Virus record (IMG/VR): IMGVR_UViG_2636415906_000005
Source of the DNA: a virus
Lineage: Duplodnaviria; Heunggongvirae; Uroviricota; Caudoviricetes
Length of the DNA stretch: 37,607 nt
Reading direction: 5' to 3' (one strand)
The notes under the pieces were generated by a model. The model was not told the origin of the DNA and did no database searches. It saw only the letters and a program-made list of their open reading frames with translations. Within the stretch, counting starts at the first letter, position 1. Each line of letters opens with the position of its first letter. Positions 10,893 to 25,668 of the stretch are shown in pieces. The translations under genes and the position numbers were made by a program.

Positions 10893-11048
10893 ATGAAGCA
10901 GCAAAAGGCGATGTTAATCGCCCTGATCGTCATCTGTTTAACCGTCATAGTGACGGCACTGGTAACGAGGAAAGACCTCTGCGAGGTACGAATCCGAACC
11001 GGGCAGACGGAGGTCGCTGTCTTCACAGCTTACGAACCTGAGGAGTAA
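10893..11048 (+). CDS. hokD: Hok/Gef family type I toxin HokD (RelF)
   Basis: 51-aa product MKQQKAMLIALIVICLTVIVTALVTRKDLCEVRIRTGQTEVAVFTAYEPEE, which I recognise as HokD/RelF; followed by a fold-back repeat CGAGGGAgaaaTCCCTCG and an intrinsic terminator. Confidence 0.9.
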   Translation: MKQQKAMLIALIVICLTVIVTALVTRKDLCEVRIRTGQTEVAVFTAYEPEE

Positions 11049-14260: not shown

Positions 14261-14336
14261 GGTCCTTTAGCTCAGTGGTGAGAGCGAGCGACTCATAATC
14301 GCCAGGTCGCTGGTTCAAATCCAGCAAGGGCCACCA
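14261..14336 (+). tRNA. tRNA with anticodon CAU, most similar to tRNA-Ile2 (lysidine, ileX/ileZ-like); tRNA-Met not excluded
   Basis: 76-nt cloverleaf folded by hand: acceptor GGTCCTT/AAGGGCC, D-arm TAGCTCAGTGGTGAGAGC, anticodon loop CTCATAA, T-arm GCTGG-TTCAAAT-CCAGC, 3' CCA; resembles my memory of E. coli tRNA-Ile2. Confidence 0.85.
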
Positions 14337-14398
14337 TCACAAACCGCCATGAGCTTATCAGGAAGAGCAGACGACACGATAACAGGGTTGTTGGTGGC

Positions 14399-14412
14399 GG
14401 GGGGGGGGGGGG
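14399..14412. repeat. Homopolymeric G tract (about 14 G) between the two tRNA genes
   Basis: GGCGGGGGGGGGGGGGGCGGG read directly from 14397-14416. Confidence 0.9.
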
Positions 14413-14446
14413 CGGGTCCCCGATGGCGGTCCATTATCGGTATTCA

Positions 14447-14523
14447 GCGTTGTTAGCTCAGCCGGACAGAGCAATTGCCTTCTAAGCAATCGGTCACTGG
14501 TTCGAATCCAGTACAGCGCGCCA
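14447..14523 (+). tRNA. tRNA-Arg (anticodon UCU)
   Basis: 77-nt cloverleaf: acceptor GCGTTGT/ACAGCGC, anticodon stem ATTGC/GCAAT with loop CTTCTAA, T-arm ACTGG-TTCGAAT-CCAGT, 3' GCCA. Confidence 0.85.
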
Positions 14524-15520: not shown

Positions 15521-15949
15521 ATGGGTTTTCGTAGCGCATCAATTCTTACGTTGATTATTAGTGGGATTATTATCGGGTGCACTGATGCTGTATCGACAAA
15601 TTATCATGACCGTACATCATATTACTCCGATAAAGCAATAGAGACACAGTATGTGAGTTTATCTGAACGTACTTCTGATGTTAGTGAGGATATCCGTCTG
15701 TATGCCCATCAAATCAAGAGCGCCATCGAAAAACAGTTCGGGGATGCGAGTAAGTATTCAGGAAAAGAGTGTACACTGAGAATGCATATGGCCCCGAATG
15801 GCCTTCTACTGGAGGTTAAAAGAGAAAGTGGAGACCTCGATTTATGTCGTGAAGCGATGAATGCGATAAAGAATGCTGATATACCTGCCCCCCCTTCGCC
15901 GGAAGTATATAAAGTATTTCAAAATGGGGTGCTGGATTTTAAACCCTGA
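15521..15949 (+). CDS. Lipoprotein with TolA C-terminal (domain III)-like fold
   Basis: Signal peptide with lipobox-like IIGC; the C-terminal 85 aa (YAHQIKSAIEKQFGDASKYSGKECTLRMHMAPNGLLLEVKRESGDLDLCREAMNAIKNADIPAPPSPEVYKVFQNGVLDFKP) aligns closely with my recollection of E. coli TolA domain III; GAGGA ribosome-binding site before the ATG. Confidence 0.75.
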   Translation: MGFRSASILTLIISGIIIGCTDAVSTNYHDRTSYYSDKAIETQYVSLSERTSDVSEDIRLYAHQIKSAIEKQFGDASKYSGKECTLRMHMAPNGLLLEVKRESGDLDLCREAMNAIKNADIPAPPSPEVYKVFQNGVLDFKP

Positions 15950-16099: not shown

Positions 16100-16495
16100 G
16101 TGGGATTAAAGAAAATCGTTATGTTGACTTTTTGGGTCAGTTTTGTTGCGGGATGCACACCTTTACACCCTTCAGATTGCCACAAAACTACTGCTACAGG
16201 TAGTTGCAGTTCAGGACGCTGGGATGATCAGGATGAATGGGGGGCGCAAGCGCGGGGAATCAGAGCTGCAATTAATGCCAAACTTGATGAGCCGCATAAC
16301 TGGAAAGGGAAAAAATGCAGGTTGCATATGGAATTCTCTCAGGATGGCACGGCGTTAAAAATATCTACCAGTAACGGTGATAAAGCCTATTGCGAAGCGA
16401 TAAAGTCCGCAGCTCATAAAGCCAAATTTCCGGCCTTCAACAATCCGGAAGTCTACAGAGATTTTCAGAAATCTGGCTTTGACATGCGAGGTTAG
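16100..16495 (+). CDS. Paralogous lipoprotein with divergent TolA domain III-like region
   Basis: GTG start after GAGGAG; signal peptide with lipobox VAGC; conserved skeleton GKKCRLHMEF..DG.ALKI....GD.AYCEAI.SAA.KAKFPAF..PEVYRDFQ shared with the upstream paralog. Confidence 0.7.
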   Translation: MGLKKIVMLTFWVSFVAGCTPLHPSDCHKTTATGSCSSGRWDDQDEWGAQARGIRAAINAKLDEPHNWKGKKCRLHMEFSQDGTALKISTSNGDKAYCEAIKSAAHKAKFPAFNNPEVYRDFQKSGFDMRG

Positions 16496-16966: not shown

Positions 16967-17311
16967 ATGACTCAAAAATATGAACTGATTGTGAAAGGGA
17001 TCCGCAATTTTGAGAATAAAGTTACGGTAACTTTAGCGTTACGGGACAAAGAACGCTTTGACGGTGAAATTTTTGACCTGGACATCTCGCTGGACCGTGT
17101 TGAAGGTGCCGCGCTGGAGTTTTATGAGGCAGCAGCCAGAAGGAGCATCAGACAGGTCTTCCTGGATGTTGCTGCCGGGTTATGTGAAGGGGATGAGCTG
17201 TCGCCGGAAAAGCGCCCCATAATTTTAGAGGCGCAGAATGTGTGGATAACCTACAAAGGAAAGCTACCGGGAAGAATTACTGGTTCTCTGAAGACTCCGC
17301 CGAAATGGTAA
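16967..17311 (+). CDS. Hypothetical 114-aa protein inserted between holin and endolysin
   Basis: ATG 5 nt after the holin stop with GGGGAGAG upstream; protein-like composition; no family recognised. Confidence 0.5.
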   Translation: MTQKYELIVKGIRNFENKVTVTLALRDKERFDGEIFDLDISLDRVEGAALEFYEAAARRSIRQVFLDVAAGLCEGDELSPEKRPIILEAQNVWITYKGKLPGRITGSLKTPPKW

Positions 17312-17549
17312 TTTCACCAGCATATTTTTCTTCCAGTAATACCGCCAGCCACTTGAAAGAATTTTGTTGTTGCTGGGACCATTTGGGGTTGAGTGATTCA
17401 AGCTGGAGCGATGCCAGTGTTGGTTGCATTTGTTCCTTGGGAATTGAGAATGCCAGATATGAAAATGCGACAGTAAGGGCATTTACATCATCCCGAAGCT
17501 TGGAAATGCAGTCGAGCAACTCCTGTAGAGAAATGGTGCTATTGTCCAT
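17277..17549 (-). CDS. Hypothetical 90-aa protein, convergent with and 3'-overlapping the preceding gene
   Basis: Minus-strand ATG at 17549 preceded by GAGAGGA about 7 nt upstream; overlaps the 16967-17311 gene by about 35 bp at the 3' ends; a competing plus-strand ORF (17242-17574) exists. Confidence 0.4.
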   Translation of the reverse strand: MDNSTISLQELLDCISKLRDDVNALTVAFSYLAFSIPKEQMQPTLASLQLESLNPKWSQQQQNSFKWLAVLLEEKYAGEITISAESSENQ

Positions 17550-17654: not shown

Positions 17655-18197
17655 ATGAACGTAAAAATCAGATACGGCCTGTCGGCTGCCGTTCTGGCAC
17701 TGATTGCCGTCGGTGCGCCTGCGCCTGATATTCTCGACCAGTTTCTGAATGAAAAAGAAGGTAACCACACAACGGCATACCGCGATGGTTCCGGCATCTG
17801 GACCATCTGTCGGGGTGCCACGGTGGTGGATGGAAAACCCGTTTTTCCCGGTATGAAACTGTCGAAGGAAAAATGCGACCAGGTTAACGCCATTGAACGG
17901 GATAAGGCGCTGGCATGGGTGGAGCGCAATATTAAAGTGCCACTGACCGAACCACAGAAAGCGGGTATAGCGTCATTTTGTCCCTATAACATTGGCCCCG
18001 GTAAGTGTTTCCCGTCGACGTTTTATAAGCGGCTGAATGCCGATGATCGTAAGGGGGCATGCGAGGCGATTCGCTGGTGGATAAAAGATGGTGGGCGTGA
18101 TTGCCGCCTGACAAAAGGGCAGAAGAATGGCTGTTATGGGCAGGTCGAGCGGCGCGATCAGGAAAGCGCACTGGCGTGCTGGGGGCTGGAGCAATGA
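17655..18197 (+). CDS. SAR endolysin (T4-lysozyme-like glycoside hydrolase with N-terminal signal-anchor-release segment)
   Basis: N-terminal hydrophobic segment LSAAVLALIAVGAPAP followed by the catalytic E-x8-D-x5-T triad (EGNHTTAYRDGSGIWT); pairs with the pinholin. Confidence 0.85.
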   Translation: MNVKIRYGLSAAVLALIAVGAPAPDILDQFLNEKEGNHTTAYRDGSGIWTICRGATVVDGKPVFPGMKLSKEKCDQVNAIERDKALAWVERNIKVPLTEPQKAGIASFCPYNIGPGKCFPSTFYKRLNADDRKGACEAIRWWIKDGGRDCRLTKGQKNGCYGQVERRDQESALACWGLEQ

Positions 18198-18730
18198 AAA
18201 TTAATCCGGATCTTATAGGCGTTGTCGTTATTGCTGGCCTTTCGGTCGCTCTCGTCAAGAGTTGCTCTCACGCCAGTAATCTTCAGAGCGATAACGACGT
18301 TCTGCGAAGTGACAACTCTATGCTGGGGCAGGTAATCGCCACCCAGGCATTCAACTTCAATCGATTCAATCAGGTTGCAGAACATGCCAACAGTCTTAAC
18401 TCCCTGATCGACACCAGCACCGAAAAAACCGTAATCGAATACCGGGAGATTCTCCGCCGTGAAAAAACCTGTGATCTGCCTGTTCCTGCTGATATCGCTG
18501 GTGGGTTGCTCGAATACACGTACCGTTTACGTGCCAGCGCCATGCACACCGATACCGGCAGACCTAATGAAGCCTATGATCGTACCGCTACCACCAGCTC
18601 AATGACCTACTGCCAAGCTGTCTTGTGGATTAAGCCGCTACTGGCGTTGATAGAAAAAGGAAATAATAATTTTTCGAGTATTCGTGAAATTGATGAGTTG
18701 CGTTACAGACCATCTGAGCATGGCCAGTAA
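18194..18730 (+). CDS. Inner-membrane spanin Rz (i-spanin)
   Basis: ATG overlaps the endolysin stop (ATGA); N-terminal transmembrane segment VVVIAGLSVALV followed by a predicted coiled-coil region; standard position. Confidence 0.75.
   Translation: MKINPDLIGVVVIAGLSVALVKSCSHASNLQSDNDVLRSDNSMLGQVIATQAFNFNRFNQVAEHANSLNSLIDTSTEKTVIEYREILRREKTCDLPVPADIAGGLLEYTYRLRASAMHTDTGRPNEAYDRTATTSSMTYCQAVLWIKPLLALIEKGNNNFSSIREIDELRYRPSEHGQ
18459..18605 (+). CDS. Outer-membrane lipoprotein spanin Rz1 (o-spanin), embedded in Rz in the +1 frame
   Basis: 48-aa hand translation from GTG: MKKPVICLFLLISLVGCSNTRTVYVPAPCTPIPADLMKPMIVPLPPAQ, with lipobox LVGC and a Pro-rich mature part; absent from the ORF track because it is under 60 aa. 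Confidence 0.6.
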   Translation: MKKPVICLFLLISLVGCSNTRTVYVPAPCTPIPADLMKPMIVPLPPAQ

Positions 18731-18805
18731 GGTTGCAGGAAATTTAAAATCTGGCGATGAAATTTAATATTAGAAATTCATTGCCTAGTGAGATTAATAA
18801 TGGGC

Positions 18806-18847
18806 ATCCCTTTGTGACGATAAGCTTTAACACATTCACAAAGGGAT
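18806..18847. repeat. 12-bp perfect inverted repeat ATCCCTTTGTGA / TCACAAAGGGAT between convergent Rz and the minus-strand cargo gene (likely bidirectional terminator)
   Basis: Read directly from the sequence; lies between the 3' ends of convergent genes. Confidence 0.55.
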
Positions 18848-18898
18848 ATTTAATATAGGGTGGTTAATTCCCACTTGCTGTGGTGTTTAGGGGGTAAT

Positions 18899-19591
18899 TC
18901 AAATCTTATCTAACTCATTATAGGCTTCGATAATAAAAATTCTGATTTTAATAAGGCATGATTCAATGAAAGGAATTACTTCATGGTCATTCCCATGGAA
19001 TCTTATTTTTTTCTCTTCGGTAATGACTATGTTTAAAGGTACACCATTACCACTTCTTTGTAATTTCCCATTTTCGAAAGTAAAGTCTTCTAATTTTTTG
19101 CCATTGATGTGGTTGTTTTTAAAGAGAATTTTTGCTGAGCTTCCTGCTGTGATTAAACCAAAACCATCTACGCTCACACTTAGGTCTTTAACAGAACTCT
19201 CTTCTCTTAAGGGGATTGGTTGTCTGTGCTTTACTTCATTAGTGAGATTACACATCATTTCCAACCAAGATTCGCCAGTGTGATAATCCTGTATAGAAGT
19301 AAAAATTTTATATAATGGAGAAGATGATGGTGGGTTTATTTTTAGCGTCTTTGAGAAAAATTTATCAATAAACTCTTTTTTTCCGTAAGGGAAATATATT
19401 TTGGGGCGCTCATCATTACTGCGTGGAGAAATATATTTATCATAGGTATCATTAGCGAGATACTCTAAGGAACTTCGTAAGTTTTCCAAAATAGCTTTGA
19501 CTTTTACAGGCTTGATATGCTGTGTCTGTCTCATTATGTCAAGACTTTCTTCAACTTCTTGCAATAAGTCCAACGAGCCTTCTCTAGACAT
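18899..19591 (-). CDS. Hypothetical 230-aa protein, AT-rich minus-strand cargo gene in the bor-equivalent position (candidate accessory/defense gene)
   Basis: Long ORF on the strand opposite all neighbouring late genes, with AAGGAG about 9 nt upstream of the ATG on the minus strand and visibly low GC; no recognised family. Confidence 0.65.
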   Translation of the reverse strand: MSREGSLDLLQEVEESLDIMRQTQHIKPVKVKAILENLRSSLEYLANDTYDKYISPRSNDERPKIYFPYGKKEFIDKFFSKTLKINPPSSSPLYKIFTSIQDYHTGESWLEMMCNLTNEVKHRQPIPLREESSVKDLSVSVDGFGLITAGSSAKILFKNNHINGKKLEDFTFENGKLQRSGNGVPLNIVITEEKKIRFHGNDHEVIPFIESCLIKIRIFIIEAYNELDKI

Positions 19592-19969
19592 ACAGGTAAT
19601 TCTCCTTTATGAATTTTCAACATGTTATAACTAATAATATATTTATCATATAACTGTATGAATAAATTGTGAGATTAGTAATGCAAGTTTCTATCCATAG
19701 TGTTCTCTAAGTACCCGCTTCCATCATGTTGTTACGGACGGTATGGCTAAAACAAAGCACCTGAAGTTAAACGTTCTGAACTTTATGCTCGTTGAGCATA
19801 TGAATTATCTGTAACCCGATGCGCTGGTTGTGGTTCACATTGATGGTCGTAATCAGCAGCGGTGGTGCCTGATGGCATGCAACTTCTTACTTATAAAACT
19901 TCGTATGGAATTGTTGCCATAACGAGCCCAGCTTAGCAGTTTTTAATGGGTCCTCCCGGCAGTGTGTCC

Positions 19970-20060
19970 TGCCACGGGGCGGGAGCGTCGCGGAAAAAGG
20001 CTAGTTTTTGAAATTTCATTCGTCATCACCACTACTGTAATGTATTGATATTACAGTGGT
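19970..20060 (+). other. cos-like region (cosN/cosB candidate) upstream of the terminase small subunit
   Basis: GGGGCGGGAGCGTCGCGG resembles the lambda cosN core GGGCGGCGACCTCGCGGG as I recall it; followed by CATTCGTCAT and the palindrome CTGTAAT-N9-ATTACAG. Coordinates approximate. Confidence 0.35.
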
Positions 20061-20162
20061 TTTATTTTTGTGGTGTCGATTTTGATTGTTTTTTGTTCAT
20101 CACTAACACCGTTTGCCTAAAGTTGTTCGCAAGATGCATGTTTAAAACATTCTGGAGCGGGT

Positions 20163-20657
20163 ATGGATCGAGAGTTAAAAAATCTGACGCTGAATATCAG
20201 TCAACTGGCGGCTCTGTCAGGTGTACATCGCCAGACTGCTGCGGCAAGGCTGCAAAATCTACCCGTTGCAGGGGGGCATGAAAGCAACCTCAAGCTTTAT
20301 CGGGTGGTTGATATTGTGTCGGCATTTCTGGCATTACCACCGCCGGTTGCAGAAGGCGAAATGGACGCGCATGAGCGCAAAGCCTGGTATCAGTCTGAAC
20401 GTGAGCGTCTTAAGTTCGAACAGGAAACGGCACAACTCATTCCGGCCAGTGATGTCAGACGGGAGTTTGCCATCTGGGCAAAAGCGGTCGTGCAGGTGCT
20501 GGAGACATTACCGGATATTCTTGAACGTGACTGCGGTCTGCAGCCTGCCGCTGTGAGCCGTGTTCAGTCCATTATTGATGATCTGCGCGATCAGATAGCC
20601 CTGCGGGTGACCGAAGCAGGTGCGGATGATGAGGAGGAATTACAGCGGGAGGAGTAA
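20163..20657 (+). CDS. Terminase small subunit (Nu1-like)
   Basis: 164-aa product with an N-terminal helix-turn-helix (LNISQLAALSGVHRQTAAARL) and an acidic C-terminus; immediately precedes, and overlaps the start of, the large subunit. Confidence 0.8.
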   Translation: MDRELKNLTLNISQLAALSGVHRQTAAARLQNLPVAGGHESNLKLYRVVDIVSAFLALPPPVAEGEMDAHERKAWYQSERERLKFEQETAQLIPASDVRREFAIWAKAVVQVLETLPDILERDCGLQPAAVSRVQSIIDDLRDQIALRVTEAGADDEEELQREE

Positions 20658-22968: not shown

Positions 22969-24476
22969 TGGCAATTCTTGATGATGTGATTGGCGTTTTT
23001 TCACCAGGATGGAAAGCGGCAAGGCTGCGTTCCCGTGCGGTGATCCAGGCTTATGAGGCCGTAAAAACGACGCGGACACACAAAGCCCGGCGGGAAAACC
23101 GAACTGCCGACCAGTTAAGCCAGTACGGGGCCGTGTCGTTACGTGAGCAGGCCCGTTACCTTGATAACAACCACGATCTGGTCATTGGTGTATTTGACAA
23201 GCTGGAAGAACGGGTGGTGGGGAAAAACGGGATTATTGTCGAGCCACATCCGGTATTACGCAATGGGGCCATTGCCCGTGACCTGGCTGCGGAGATTCGC
23301 ACCCGATGGAGTGAATGGTCTGTCAGCCCGGAAGTCACCGGGCAGTTTACCCGTCCGATGCTGGAACGTCTGATGCTGCGTACCTGGCTGCGCGATGGTG
23401 AGGTGTTTGTCCAGATGGTTTCCGGGCGCATAAACAGCCTGACGCCTTCTGCCGGTGTTCATTTCTGGCTGGAGGCACTCGAGCCGGACTTTATTCCCAT
23501 GACCAGTGATGAGAGCAACAGGCTGAATCAGGGCGTGTTTGTTGATGACTGGGGGCGTCCCGAAAAATATCTGGTGTATAAAAGTCGTCCCGTATCCGGA
23601 CGGCAGATGGAAACCAAAGAAGTGGATGCAGAGCGAATGCTGCATCTTAAATTTGTTCGCCGTCTGCACCAGATGCGCGGGACGTCTTTGTTGTCCGGTG
23701 TGCTGATCCGCCTCAGTGCCCTGAAAGAGTATGAAGATTCTGAGCTGACTGCAGCAAGGATCGCCGCTGCTCTGGGGATGTACATCCGGAAAGGCGACGG
23801 GCAGAGCTATGAACCGGATGGTAATGGCAGCAAGGATAAGGAACGCGAGCTTACCATTCAGCCAGGCATTATTTACGACGATCTGAAACCCGGCGAAGAA
23901 ATCGGAATGGTGAAGTCGGATCGTCCCAATCCTAACCTTGAAACTTTTCGTAATGGTCAGTTGCGTGCCGTGGCGGCGGGCAGTCGTCTGAGTTTTTCCA
24001 GTACGGCACGCAACTATAACGGCACTTACAGCGCCCAGCGTCAGGAGCTGGTTGAATCCACTGATGGCTACCTGATCCTGCAGGACTGGTTTATTGGTGC
24101 CGTCACCCGCCCGATGTATCGTGCCTGGCTGAAACAGGCTGTGGCATCCGGTGTTATCAGGCTACCCCGCGATCTTGACCGTTCTTCACTGTATACCGCG
24201 GTGTATTCCGGACCGGTGATGCCGTGGATTGACCCTGTTAAGGAGGCTGAGGCCTGGAAAATTCAGATTCGTGGTGGAGCAGCGACAGAATCAGACTGGG
24301 TACGTGCAGGTGGTCGTAATCCGGATGATGTCAAACGTCGGCGCAAGGCCGAAATTGATGAAAACCGCACGCTGGATCTGGTATTTGATACCGATCCGGC
24401 CAGTGATAAAGGAGGCAGCAGTGCCGCAACGAAACGACAGGAGCCGCAGCACACCGACGACCAGTCCGAAGAATAA
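22968..24476 (+). CDS. Portal protein (lambda gpB-like)
   Basis: About 502-aa product from MAILDDVIGVFSPGWKAARLRSRAVIQAYEAVKTTRTHKARRENRTADQL..., recognised as lambda-like portal; ATG overlaps the W stop. Confidence 0.9.
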   Translation: MAILDDVIGVFSPGWKAARLRSRAVIQAYEAVKTTRTHKARRENRTADQLSQYGAVSLREQARYLDNNHDLVIGVFDKLEERVVGKNGIIVEPHPVLRNGAIARDLAAEIRTRWSEWSVSPEVTGQFTRPMLERLMLRTWLRDGEVFVQMVSGRINSLTPSAGVHFWLEALEPDFIPMTSDESNRLNQGVFVDDWGRPEKYLVYKSRPVSGRQMETKEVDAERMLHLKFVRRLHQMRGTSLLSGVLIRLSALKEYEDSELTAARIAAALGMYIRKGDGQSYEPDGNGSKDKERELTIQPGIIYDDLKPGEEIGMVKSDRPNPNLETFRNGQLRAVAAGSRLSFSSTARNYNGTYSAQRQELVESTDGYLILQDWFIGAVTRPMYRAWLKQAVASGVIRLPRDLDRSSLYTAVYSGPVMPWIDPVKEAEAWKIQIRGGAATESDWVRAGGRNPDDVKRRRKAEIDENRTLDLVFDTDPASDKGGSSAATKRQEPQHTDDQSEE

Positions 24477-24489
24477 TTCCTGGTTCAGG

Positions 24490-25668
24490 ATGCAGGCTGG
24501 TCACCAGAGTGACGCGGATATTTATATTTATGACGAGATTGGTTTCTGGGGTGTTACAGCGAAGCAGTTTATCAGTGATCTGAATGCACTGGGCGATATC
24601 ACCCACATTAATCTCCATATCAATTCACCGGGTGGCGATGTCTTTGAAGGCATCGCCATTTTTAATGCACTGAAAACACATGGTGCGTCCATTACCGTTT
24701 ATGTCGACGGTGTGGCGGCGTCAATGGCGTCGGTCATTGCGATGGTGGGAAACCCGGTCATTATGCCGGAAAACACCTTCATGATGATTCATAAACCATT
24801 TGGCTTTACGGGCGGTGATGCGGAGGACATGCGCACCTATGCCGACCTGCTCGATAAGGTTGAGGCGGTTCTGTTACCCGCTTATGCACAGAAAACCGGG
24901 AAAACCACCGATGAAATTGCTGCCATGCTGGCGGATGAGACCTGGATGTCCGGTGCCGAATGTCTGGCACATGGATTTGCTGATCAGGTGACGCCAGCCG
25001 TTAAGGCAATGGCATGTATTCAGTCAAAACGTACAGAGGAATTTAAAAAGATGCCGGAATCCATTCGAAACATGATTACTCCGCCACGCAACAGTGCTCC
25101 ACGCGTACAGGATGATGAACCTGCAGCCTCCCGGACGCCAGTGCAGGCAGCAGCACCCGTGGTGGATGAAAACAGTATCCGTGCGCAGGTACTGGCAGAG
25201 CAAAAAGCGCGTGTAAACGGTATTAATGATCTGTTTGCCATGTTTGGCGGGCGTTATCAGACGCTGCAGGCTCAGTGTCTTGCCGATCCTGAATGTTCGC
25301 TGGAGCAGGCCCGCGAAAAGCTGTTGAACGAGATGGGGCGCGAGTCCACGCCATCCAATAAAAATACACCGGCTCATATTTATGCCGGTAATCTGGAGGC
25401 CACAGGGCTGTATCAGGTGCCGTTGTCAGCGGCGCAGCCGGGCGATGTGCTGCTGTGCTGTTTTGGTTCATCGGTGCCGAATCATGCCGCCATTTACTGT
25501 GGCGACGGCGGGCTGCTGCACCATATTCCTGAACAACTGAGCAAACGAGAGAGGTATACCGACAAATGGCAGCGACGCACACACTCCCTCTGGCGTCACC
25601 GGGCATGGCGCGCATCTGCCTTTACGGGGATTTACAACGATTTGGCCGCCGCATCGATCTGCGTGTGA
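24490..25668 (+). pseudogene. Chimeric ORF: head maturation protease (gpC-like, ClpP/S49 fold) N-terminal part fused in frame to a tail assembly protein K-like (NlpC/P60-type) C-terminal fragment; scar of a head/tail gene deletion
   Basis: The N-terminal 200 aa carry ClpP/S49-like motifs (INSPGGDVFEGIAIFNALK ... VAASMASVIAMVG ... MIHKP). The C-terminal 90 aa (QPGDVLLCCFGSSVPNHAAIYCGDGGLLHHIPEQ...) look like the NlpC/P60-type end of lambda K. It is followed directly by gpI and gpJ, with no scaffold, capsid, tail tube or tape-measure genes in between. Confidence 0.6.

Follow-up and report, generated by a model that had tools for sequence, protein, structure and literature searches.

What is the gene that lies between the lysis and packaging genes of this prophage, on the strand opposite to both, and what might it do for the prophage or its host? 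The window, that is, the whole stretch of 37,607 nt that was analysed (IMG/VR record IMGVR_UViG_2636415906_000005), contains at this place a CDS with an ATG start on the minus strand (18899..19591), encoding a protein of 230 aa (26.5 kDa, pI 6.6). No other long ORF on the minus strand is found between lysis and packaging genes. An earlier note on this DNA had described it as the only gene opposed to the late genes around it; its strand is as described, but the RefSeq annotation places a second minus-strand ORF, of 92 aa, nearby at about 17277–17549. Upstream neighbours of the 230-aa gene are a P21-type holin, DUF1327/YdfR and a lysozyme, while DUF1441 (in the terS position), a GpA-type TerL and a lambda-type portal are found downstream. 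The prophage in the window is defective, yet the 230-aa gene is intact. Its low GC content, which had already been pointed out, amounts to 0.338 (GC3 0.307), compared to 0.48 for the window and 0.543 for terL (GC3 0.538). Composition and prophage comparison together delimit an AT-rich cargo segment at 18731..19947, with 35% GC.

The corresponding slot in phage lambda, between Rz and cos and antisense to the late operon, is occupied by bor, which has its own expression signals and encodes an outer-membrane lipoprotein of about 97 aa with a signal peptide and a lipobox. The 230-aa gene has the same slot and antisense orientation as bor. The earlier note was nevertheless right that its product is not Bor-like, as the 230-aa protein is helical and has neither signal peptide nor lipobox at its acidic, helical N-terminus (MSREGSLDLLQEVEE). 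The sole hydrophobic stretch of the protein, residues 205–223 (KD19 1.66), coincides with the fourth helix of the bundle in the structure models described below. The 230-aa protein is cytoplasmic and stand-alone. On the lysis side, the cargo segment borders an i-spanin-like gene (plus strand, 18194..18730) with an N-terminal TM helix, in which an o-spanin-like lipoprotein ORF with a lipobox is embedded (18459..18605). Architecture and position suggest that these two form a spanin pair. The name Rz, which the earlier note had used for the gene at 18194–18730, has the same basis, and the ORF had no Pfam match.

To see how the gene is distributed, we compared the window with related prophages. 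A prophage of Escherichia coli GN4554 encodes TerS and TerL proteins identical to those of the window and lacks the 230-aa gene. Homology between the two breaks at 18197 and is back from 19948, which is also where homology with other DUF1441/GpA prophages picks up again. The spanin allele belongs to the segment 18198–19947 and differs from that of related prophages. Among 5426 complete E. coli genomes, the 230-aa gene was found in 98, always on the chromosome and with 95–100% DNA identity.

Homologues with 50–83% identity were found in Raoultella, Enterobacter, Cronobacter and Citrobacter. In these four genera the gene is located between spanin/lysis genes and HNH/terS/terL, on the opposite strand every time, and the same antisense slot is present in approximately 25 enterobacterial IMG/VR contigs. 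The locus search used alignment A1, the wide alignment A2 being too diverse. The recurrence of the slot spans five genera and several phage backbones. Endolysins at these loci are either GH19 enzymes or lysozymes, the holins vary too, and packaging involves either an HK97-type TerL with HNH or a GpA-type TerL with two terS alleles. In Rouxiella silvae, a P2-like prophage has a more distant homologue (32% identical) in the interval from gpQ (portal) to gpA. The earlier proposal of a moron slot is thus borne out by polymorphism among prophages with identical terminases and by antisense recurrence across five genera; homologues at bor-equivalent positions, which the note had suggested looking for, occur in several enterobacterial prophage genera.

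Does the gene carry its own expression signals? The strong ribosome-binding site reported earlier is present as a Shine-Dalgarno sequence, AAGGAG (minus strand, 19602..19607), 10 nt 5' of the ATG. A comparison of upstream regions further identified a TAGnTATAAC block (minus strand, 19624..19633), of which the -10-like TATAAC occupies 19624–19629. In the form TAGnTATAAnA, 35–45 nt 5' of the ATG, this block shows no variation among five loci of different genera whose upstream regions have otherwise diverged. This fits a conserved -10 element with a putative promoter role. Downstream, an inverted-repeat search recovered the perfect 12-bp inverted repeat with an 18-nt loop that had been noticed before (18806..18847; arms 18806–18817 and 18836–18847), and confirmed it as the only one of its type in the window. 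It does separate the 230-aa gene from the spanin gene, lying between their convergent 3' ends. Shuffles of the whole window yielded a mean of 0.06 such repeats, and shuffles of the AT-rich segment yielded one in 0.35% of cases; the RNA fold over 111 nt at the hairpin had a z-score of -2.64. We rejected a canonical intrinsic terminator, as a terminator consensus scan did not pick out the hairpin at 18806–18847, which lacks a T-run. The hairpin is probably a 3'-end or terminator-type stem-loop of the moron transcript. Strong hairpins with unrelated sequences were present 3' of the gene in three of five other loci (L007, L056 and L059), while two had none. With the -10-like element and the 3' hairpins, the gene would have a promoter and terminator of its own, both of putative activity. 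An Rfam scan of 18400–20400 gave a single match at the hairpin, to mir-204, at chance level (E-value of 0.5, with a bit score well short of the gathering score).

Because it is present or absent between homologous phage genes, is atypical in composition, and has a -10-like element and 3' hairpins, we conclude that the 230-aa gene is a horizontally mobile moron in a polymorphic cargo slot, a status that is well supported. It sits as an insertion at the presumably cos-proximal position that separates the spanin genes from terS, where it is convergent with the late operon.

We next asked whether the protein belongs to a known family. None had been recognised in the earlier note, and at the level of sequence this holds: the 230-aa query matched nothing in Pfam, NCBIfam, PADLOC or the PDB sequences, and Pfam and PDB searches with the family profile or 114 family members gave nothing consistent. 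The only library match was PHROG 13652, annotated as function unknown. It does not hold at the level of structure, where the protein is HEPN-like (see below). A word-indexed search retrieved 74 relatives, every one of them unnamed, whereas an exhaustive profile search retrieved 1048 clusters (50% identity) at E ≤ 1e-3, 516 of which had E ≤ 1e-10. Nearly all members are stand-alone proteins of 220–250 aa. In representative genomes, they are found in Gamma-, Beta-, Alpha- and Deltaproteobacteria, Bacteroidota, Deinococcales, Planctomycetota, Verrucomicrobia, Nitrospirae, CPR lineages and two archaea, and there are copies on two Bacillus plasmids. No homologue was detected in 50,697 deposited phage genomes, either by DNA match or by tblastn. 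Pairwise dN/dS was approximately 0.09 for the whole protein, 0.011 for helices 2 and 3 of the predicted structure, and 0.085 for its beta insert, the last value coming from six usable pairs. Because dN/dS is approximately 0.09, the 230-aa gene is, judging by its substitution pattern, a constrained protein-coding gene under strong purifying selection. Positive selection was not detected, including in the beta insert with its dN/dS of 0.085.

These distributions bear on whether the protein serves the phage itself. A lytic-cycle function encoded on the other strand, such as that of a lysis or packaging accessory, might be expected of a gene that, in dozens of prophages, directly adjoins those for spanin and terminase. 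We consider such a function very improbable: prophages with identical terS/terL lack the gene, which shows that it is dispensable, it runs antisense to the late operon and is foreign in composition, and its relatives are found at non-phage sites of the chromosome in many phyla while being absent from deposited phage genomes.

We also inspected the genes around the homologues. No neighbour gene of at least 50 aa was conserved in 43 loci from representative genomes, and a conserved partner gene of that size was rejected accordingly. Outside phages, the neighbours are mostly housekeeping genes, along with some genes of mobile elements (portal, GPA, IS110, Phd/YefM). The Neisseria copy lies within a yejABEF-like transporter operon. 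A handful of non-prophage homologues have strong defence neighbours, namely PARIS AriAB (4e-197), MzaA, DRT UG29, PDC-S45 and PsyrT. These cases hint weakly at a defence enrichment around non-phage homologues. The distant homologue P0072 has a 4-bp overlap with the gene for a 515-aa double ABC ATPase that matched the PADLOC mad3 and AriA models. We rejected this ATPase as a defence partner, as it is YejF over its full length (NF011713, E-value of 1e-179) and its gene is part of a yejABEF-like operon.

We also turned to structure prediction, as the earlier note had proposed. AF2 models were built with 27 sequences (pLDDT 89.5) and with 114 sequences (pLDDT 94.7, pTM 0.85), and helix and strand boundaries agree between the two. 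In the models, helix 1 (residues 3–23) and helix 2 (residues 28–53) are followed by an insert of loops and short helices (residues 54–108), helix 3 (residues 109–122), a seven-strand beta region inserted between helices 3 and 4 (residues 128–198; minus strand, 18998..19210) and helix 4 (residues 205–229). Conservation is concentrated on two of these helices. Helix 2 has a conserved face, K32-x3-E36-x2-R39-S40-x3-Y44-x3-D48 (KAILENLRSSLEYLAND; minus strand, 19448..19498), in which R39 is kept in 112 of the 114 members, K32 in 108, S40 and Y44 in 107 each and E36 in 104. The C-terminal end of helix 3 reads T117-N118-E-V-K121-H122 (minus strand, 19226..19243). K121 and H122 are invariant in all 114 members, as is P68; Q101 is kept in 113 and N118 in 106. 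Entropy among enterobacterial members was lowest in helices 2 and 3 (0.53–0.56 bits) and highest in the beta insert (1.57 bits). We propose that this variable insert may be a specificity or sensor module.

The arrangement of the helices points to the HEPN domain, as defined by Anantharaman et al. 2013 (PMC3710099). The AF2 models contain the four-helix up-down bundle of two alpha-hairpins on which this definition is based. K121 and H122 are the last residues of the helix at 109–122, with a His at the end of helix 3 as in HEPN domains, and N118 fills the position of the polar residue that follows the Arg. In helix 2, E36 followed by R39 forms an Ex2R motif, compared to the typical Ex3[KR] of HEPN, and the conserved face of this helix may correspond to the HEPN helix-2 acidic/basic motif. 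The loop and short-helix insert that separates helix 2 from helix 3 fits the definition as well. Further traits of the HEPN superfamily are dimers whose active-site cleft is composite and an RNase activity that needs no metal. If the HEPN topology applies, R39 and E36 would cluster with K121 and H122. The Arg of the Rx4-6H motif, however, is missing in all 114 members: position 117 is T in 81, N in 14 and V in 11, and no R is found five to seven residues before H122. Nor did profile searches link the protein to any established HEPN family, be it in Pfam (with the query and the 114 members), NCBIfam, PADLOC or the PDB. Foldseek found no significant match in the PDB, where HEPN toxins reached a probability of 0.3–0.5 only, and one unnamed viral homologue in BFVD, with nothing else. 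Structure prediction thus yields a HEPN-like fold that has no significant Foldseek counterpart in the PDB, and we predict that the core of the 230-aa protein is a HEPN-type four-helix bundle.

Could a HEPN-like protein without this Arg still be active? HEPN families that lack the full motif are often non-catalytic, while the R-less Parep1/8 family of HEPN-T keeps the His and is predicted to be active through other basic residues (PMC3710099). Like Parep1/8, the 230-aa protein retains the His at the end of helix 3, has lost the Arg and conserves other basic residues, of which K121 and R39 are candidates for compensating the loss. Unlike the 230-aa protein, Parep1/8 proteins are archaeal, have MNT or other operon partners and lack a beta insert, and we detected no sequence relationship between the two.

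The same features could also be read as those of a HEPN-like or generic helical bundle that is not a nuclease-type defence protein. It could be a lysogenic-conversion factor that binds a ligand, RNA or protein, a regulator, like MtlR among the HEPN proteins, or a protein of counter-defence, and would help the prophage or host by a route other than abortive infection. The family-wide absence of the canonical catalytic Arg would fit this, given how many HEPN families with an incomplete motif do not act as enzymes, and so would the missing PADLOC match and the many chromosomal homologues among housekeeping genes, including the Neisseria copy in a transporter operon. Against it, the invariant K-H pair and the N, R, E, K and Q residues that hardly vary, on two neighbouring helices where dN/dS is 0.011, resemble an enzyme's active site more than a surface for binding, Parep1/8 is predicted to stay active with the same loss, and both the P2 gpQ-gpA hotspot and the cos-adjacent lambdoid slot suit defence. 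We regard this reading, whether as binder, regulator or counter-defence protein, as rather unlikely.

HEPN-MNT and other type II toxin-antitoxin modules have an adjacent antitoxin gene (MNT, RnlB and similar). Only two of 111 neighbours of the family were of the Phd/YefM type and none was an MNT. What we found instead corresponds to the solo prophage HEPN proteins: a single gene with no conserved neighbour in 43 loci, borne by prophages in five enterobacterial genera. An addiction toxin, which would mainly stabilise the defective prophage and not fend off phages, would have to be paired with a small RNA or a peptide of fewer than 50 aa, as the detection of partners covered ORFs of at least 50 aa. 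Many HEPN proteins are indeed toxins of such modules (HEPN-MNT, RnlA, LsoA), the defective prophage keeps the gene intact, and the stable hairpin with its AT-rich flanks could encode an RNA. No small ORF or flanking element is kept across genera, however, apart from the short -10-like block. The downstream hairpins differ in sequence and are missing from two loci, the one Rfam match is what chance would give, and solo HEPN proteins such as HepS require no antitoxin. This makes an addiction toxin distinctly improbable.

Two prophage systems provide precedents for a solo effector. HepS, from the Gifsy-1 prophage of Salmonella, is a solo HEPN abortive-infection anticodon nuclease that forms a tetramer, is triggered by the J tail tip and targets tRNA (PMC13043305). 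Like the 230-aa protein, it is a single protein of fewer than 250 aa, encoded in an accessory-gene slot of a lambdoid prophage without a partner or inhibitor gene, and its homologues are scattered across families and often prophage-borne. HepS has the canonical R100-x4-H105, whereas the 230-aa protein has T117-N-x-x-K-H122, no family member having an Arg at that position, and the 70-residue beta insert is found only in the latter, which has no sequence similarity to any PDB chain. The proteins Tha-1 and Tha-2, both HEPN RNases of Staphylococcus aureus prophages, are activated by tail proteins, and their antisense arrangement shuts immunity down during the lytic cycle (PMC11087260). The 230-aa gene resembles tha in encoding a single, prophage-borne, predicted HEPN-like effector antisense to phage transcription. 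Tha differs in its canonical RNSIMH motif, its N-terminal domain of unknown fold, its dedicated inhibitor Ith, and its hosts and phage lineages, which are unrelated to those of the window. No Ith-type inhibitor gene was seen near the 230-aa gene in the loci examined.

Taken with these precedents, the evidence leads us to favour, at a little under an even chance, an autonomous moron that encodes a solo, non-canonical HEPN-like abortive-infection effector, akin to HepS or Tha. Whatever probability the readings considered here leave over falls to some other function. In the favoured scheme, the lysogen would make a latent, metal-independent RNase-type effector from the gene's own promoter, and its predicted active site would combine N118 and the invariant K121-H122, where helix 3 ends, with R39, E36 and K32 of helix 2. 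A component of a superinfecting phage may switch the effector on, possibly via the variable beta insert, and the active effector would then abort the infection in the manner of HepS and Tha, both solo HEPN proteins. What the analysis shows is the gene, its mobility, its recurrent position, the selection on it, the lack of a conserved partner, the similarity in fold and the geometry of the motif. We infer the nuclease chemistry, the expression in lysogens, the trigger, the defence role and the antisense silencing described below; for lysogen-expressed defence, the -10-like element, the fold, the location and the HepS and Tha precedents are what suggest it. During the lytic cycle of the prophage, Q-antiterminated late transcription running antisense through the gene would dampen its expression, as follows from the gene order and from established lambdoid late transcription. 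The convergent layout with the late operon could then illustrate how a prophage keeps from targeting itself.

How new would such an effector be? The earlier note had called the gene a candidate novel accessory or defence gene. Because the protein is HEPN-like by structure, it is likely to vary a type of defence effector that is already known, and is not wholly unknown. Solo HEPN defence by prophages has precedents as a general concept, and the novelty is in the R-less K-H motif, the beta insert and the slot. If it holds, the R-less K-H motif would widen the range of catalytically competent HEPN proteins, which matters for pipelines that filter on Rx4-6H.

The slot itself invites comparison with the cos-proximal gpQ-gpA hotspot of P2 (the old/tin locus), which is packed with anti-phage systems (Rousset et al., PMC9122126). 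Both hold cos-adjacent, highly polymorphic cargo, the P2 hotspot is enriched in anti-phage genes, and the Rouxiella homologue lies inside it. The window's prophage is lambdoid, unlike P2, and the 230-aa protein is unrelated to Old (ATPase-TOPRIM) or Tin. A bolder version of the defence reading, which we think fairly unlikely, is that the K-H dyad with N118, R39, E36 and Q101 forms a distinct enzyme class on a HEPN scaffold, as opposed to a degenerate HEPN, that the beta domain is a receptor for a phage protein, and that capture next to cos in lambdoid and P2-like phages marks the lambdoid interval from Rz to cos as a defence hotspot of general importance, equivalent to that of P2/P4. Apart from this version, if the gene does defend, its recurrence on several unrelated lambdoid backbones and in the P2 hotspot would stretch the idea of a cos-adjacent defence hotspot from P2/P4 to lambdoid phages, and the fixed slot would give a simple positional rule for mining prophage cargo.

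If the defence role is true, the approximately 1000 clusters would represent a widespread single-protein immune effector that neither the present defence catalogue (PADLOC) nor any curated protein library lists by name. A literature search for WP_023567552, A0A6D0AEH2 and phrog_13652 found no mention of them, and WP_023567552 was not found in the portion of the DefensePredictor supplements that was covered. The identical protein in E. coli ACN001 is labelled 'hypothetical' in RefSeq (WP_023567552.1), and at least 1000 contigs carry exactly this E. coli protein, named hypothetical throughout.

The prophage in the window is defective. A ClpP-type head-maturation protease domain and an NlpC/P60 domain, the latter resembling that of the tail-tip protein gpK, are joined in a single ORF (24229-25668), which is represented in RefSeq as two partial pseudogenes. 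Because of this fusion, we conclude that the capsid, tail-tube and tape-measure genes have been lost from the prophage. Despite this, the minus-strand gene for the 230-aa predicted HEPN-like protein is still intact.

The earlier note had described the 230-aa gene as a single gene opposite in strand to the late genes around it. It is not alone in this, as a second minus-strand ORF of 90 aa, annotated in RefSeq as a hypothetical protein (WP_000370545.1), lies within the lysis cassette at about 17277-17549, between the ydfR and lysozyme genes. On the plus strand, a stem-loop with a 13-bp stem and a 4-nt loop, followed by TTTATTTTTG, was found at 20031-20060, inside the conserved region and directly upstream of the DUF1441 gene that occupies the terS position. 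This region is the expected place for cos.

Directly upstream of the holin is a pair of TolA-like genes. RefSeq annotates the first (15521-15949) as "cell envelope integrity protein TolA" and the second (16100-16495), which starts with a lipoprotein-type signal (…VSFVAGC), as "TolA C-terminal domain-containing protein". These may represent a further moron pair, for example excluding Tol-dependent phages or colicins. Carrying over positions from the annotation of E. coli strain ACN001 (offset +6599) placed tRNA-Ile and tRNA-Arg genes downstream of the Q antiterminator, at about 14261-14523, and the type I toxin gene hokD upstream, at about 10893-11048.

In Enterobacter-type prophages, the homologue of the 230-aa protein adjoins a 485-aa ORF (L056, 3455-4912; also L057, L058, L086, L089 and L093), which is encoded on the phage strand between the homologue and HNH/terS. 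This ORF had no Pfam match and may be a second cargo gene sharing the slot with the homologue. The Neisseria homologues (loci L002-L006, L020, L022, L026 and L030) are found within a yejABEF-like peptide-transporter operon, where an acyl-CoA ligase gene precedes them and yejF begins with a 4-bp overlap at their stop codon. This apparently stable, housekeeping setting is odd for a putative toxin.

Among E. coli copies, the 1.3-kb segment bearing the gene is interrupted by an IS1X2 insertion in strain PK8566 (match H1; NZ_CP080172.1, 1945116-1947193). The sole E. coli "plasmid" match in PLSDB, with no annotation beneath it, was to an 834-kb record (CP054241.1, 12687-13346), which is probably a chromosomal fragment deposited as a plasmid.
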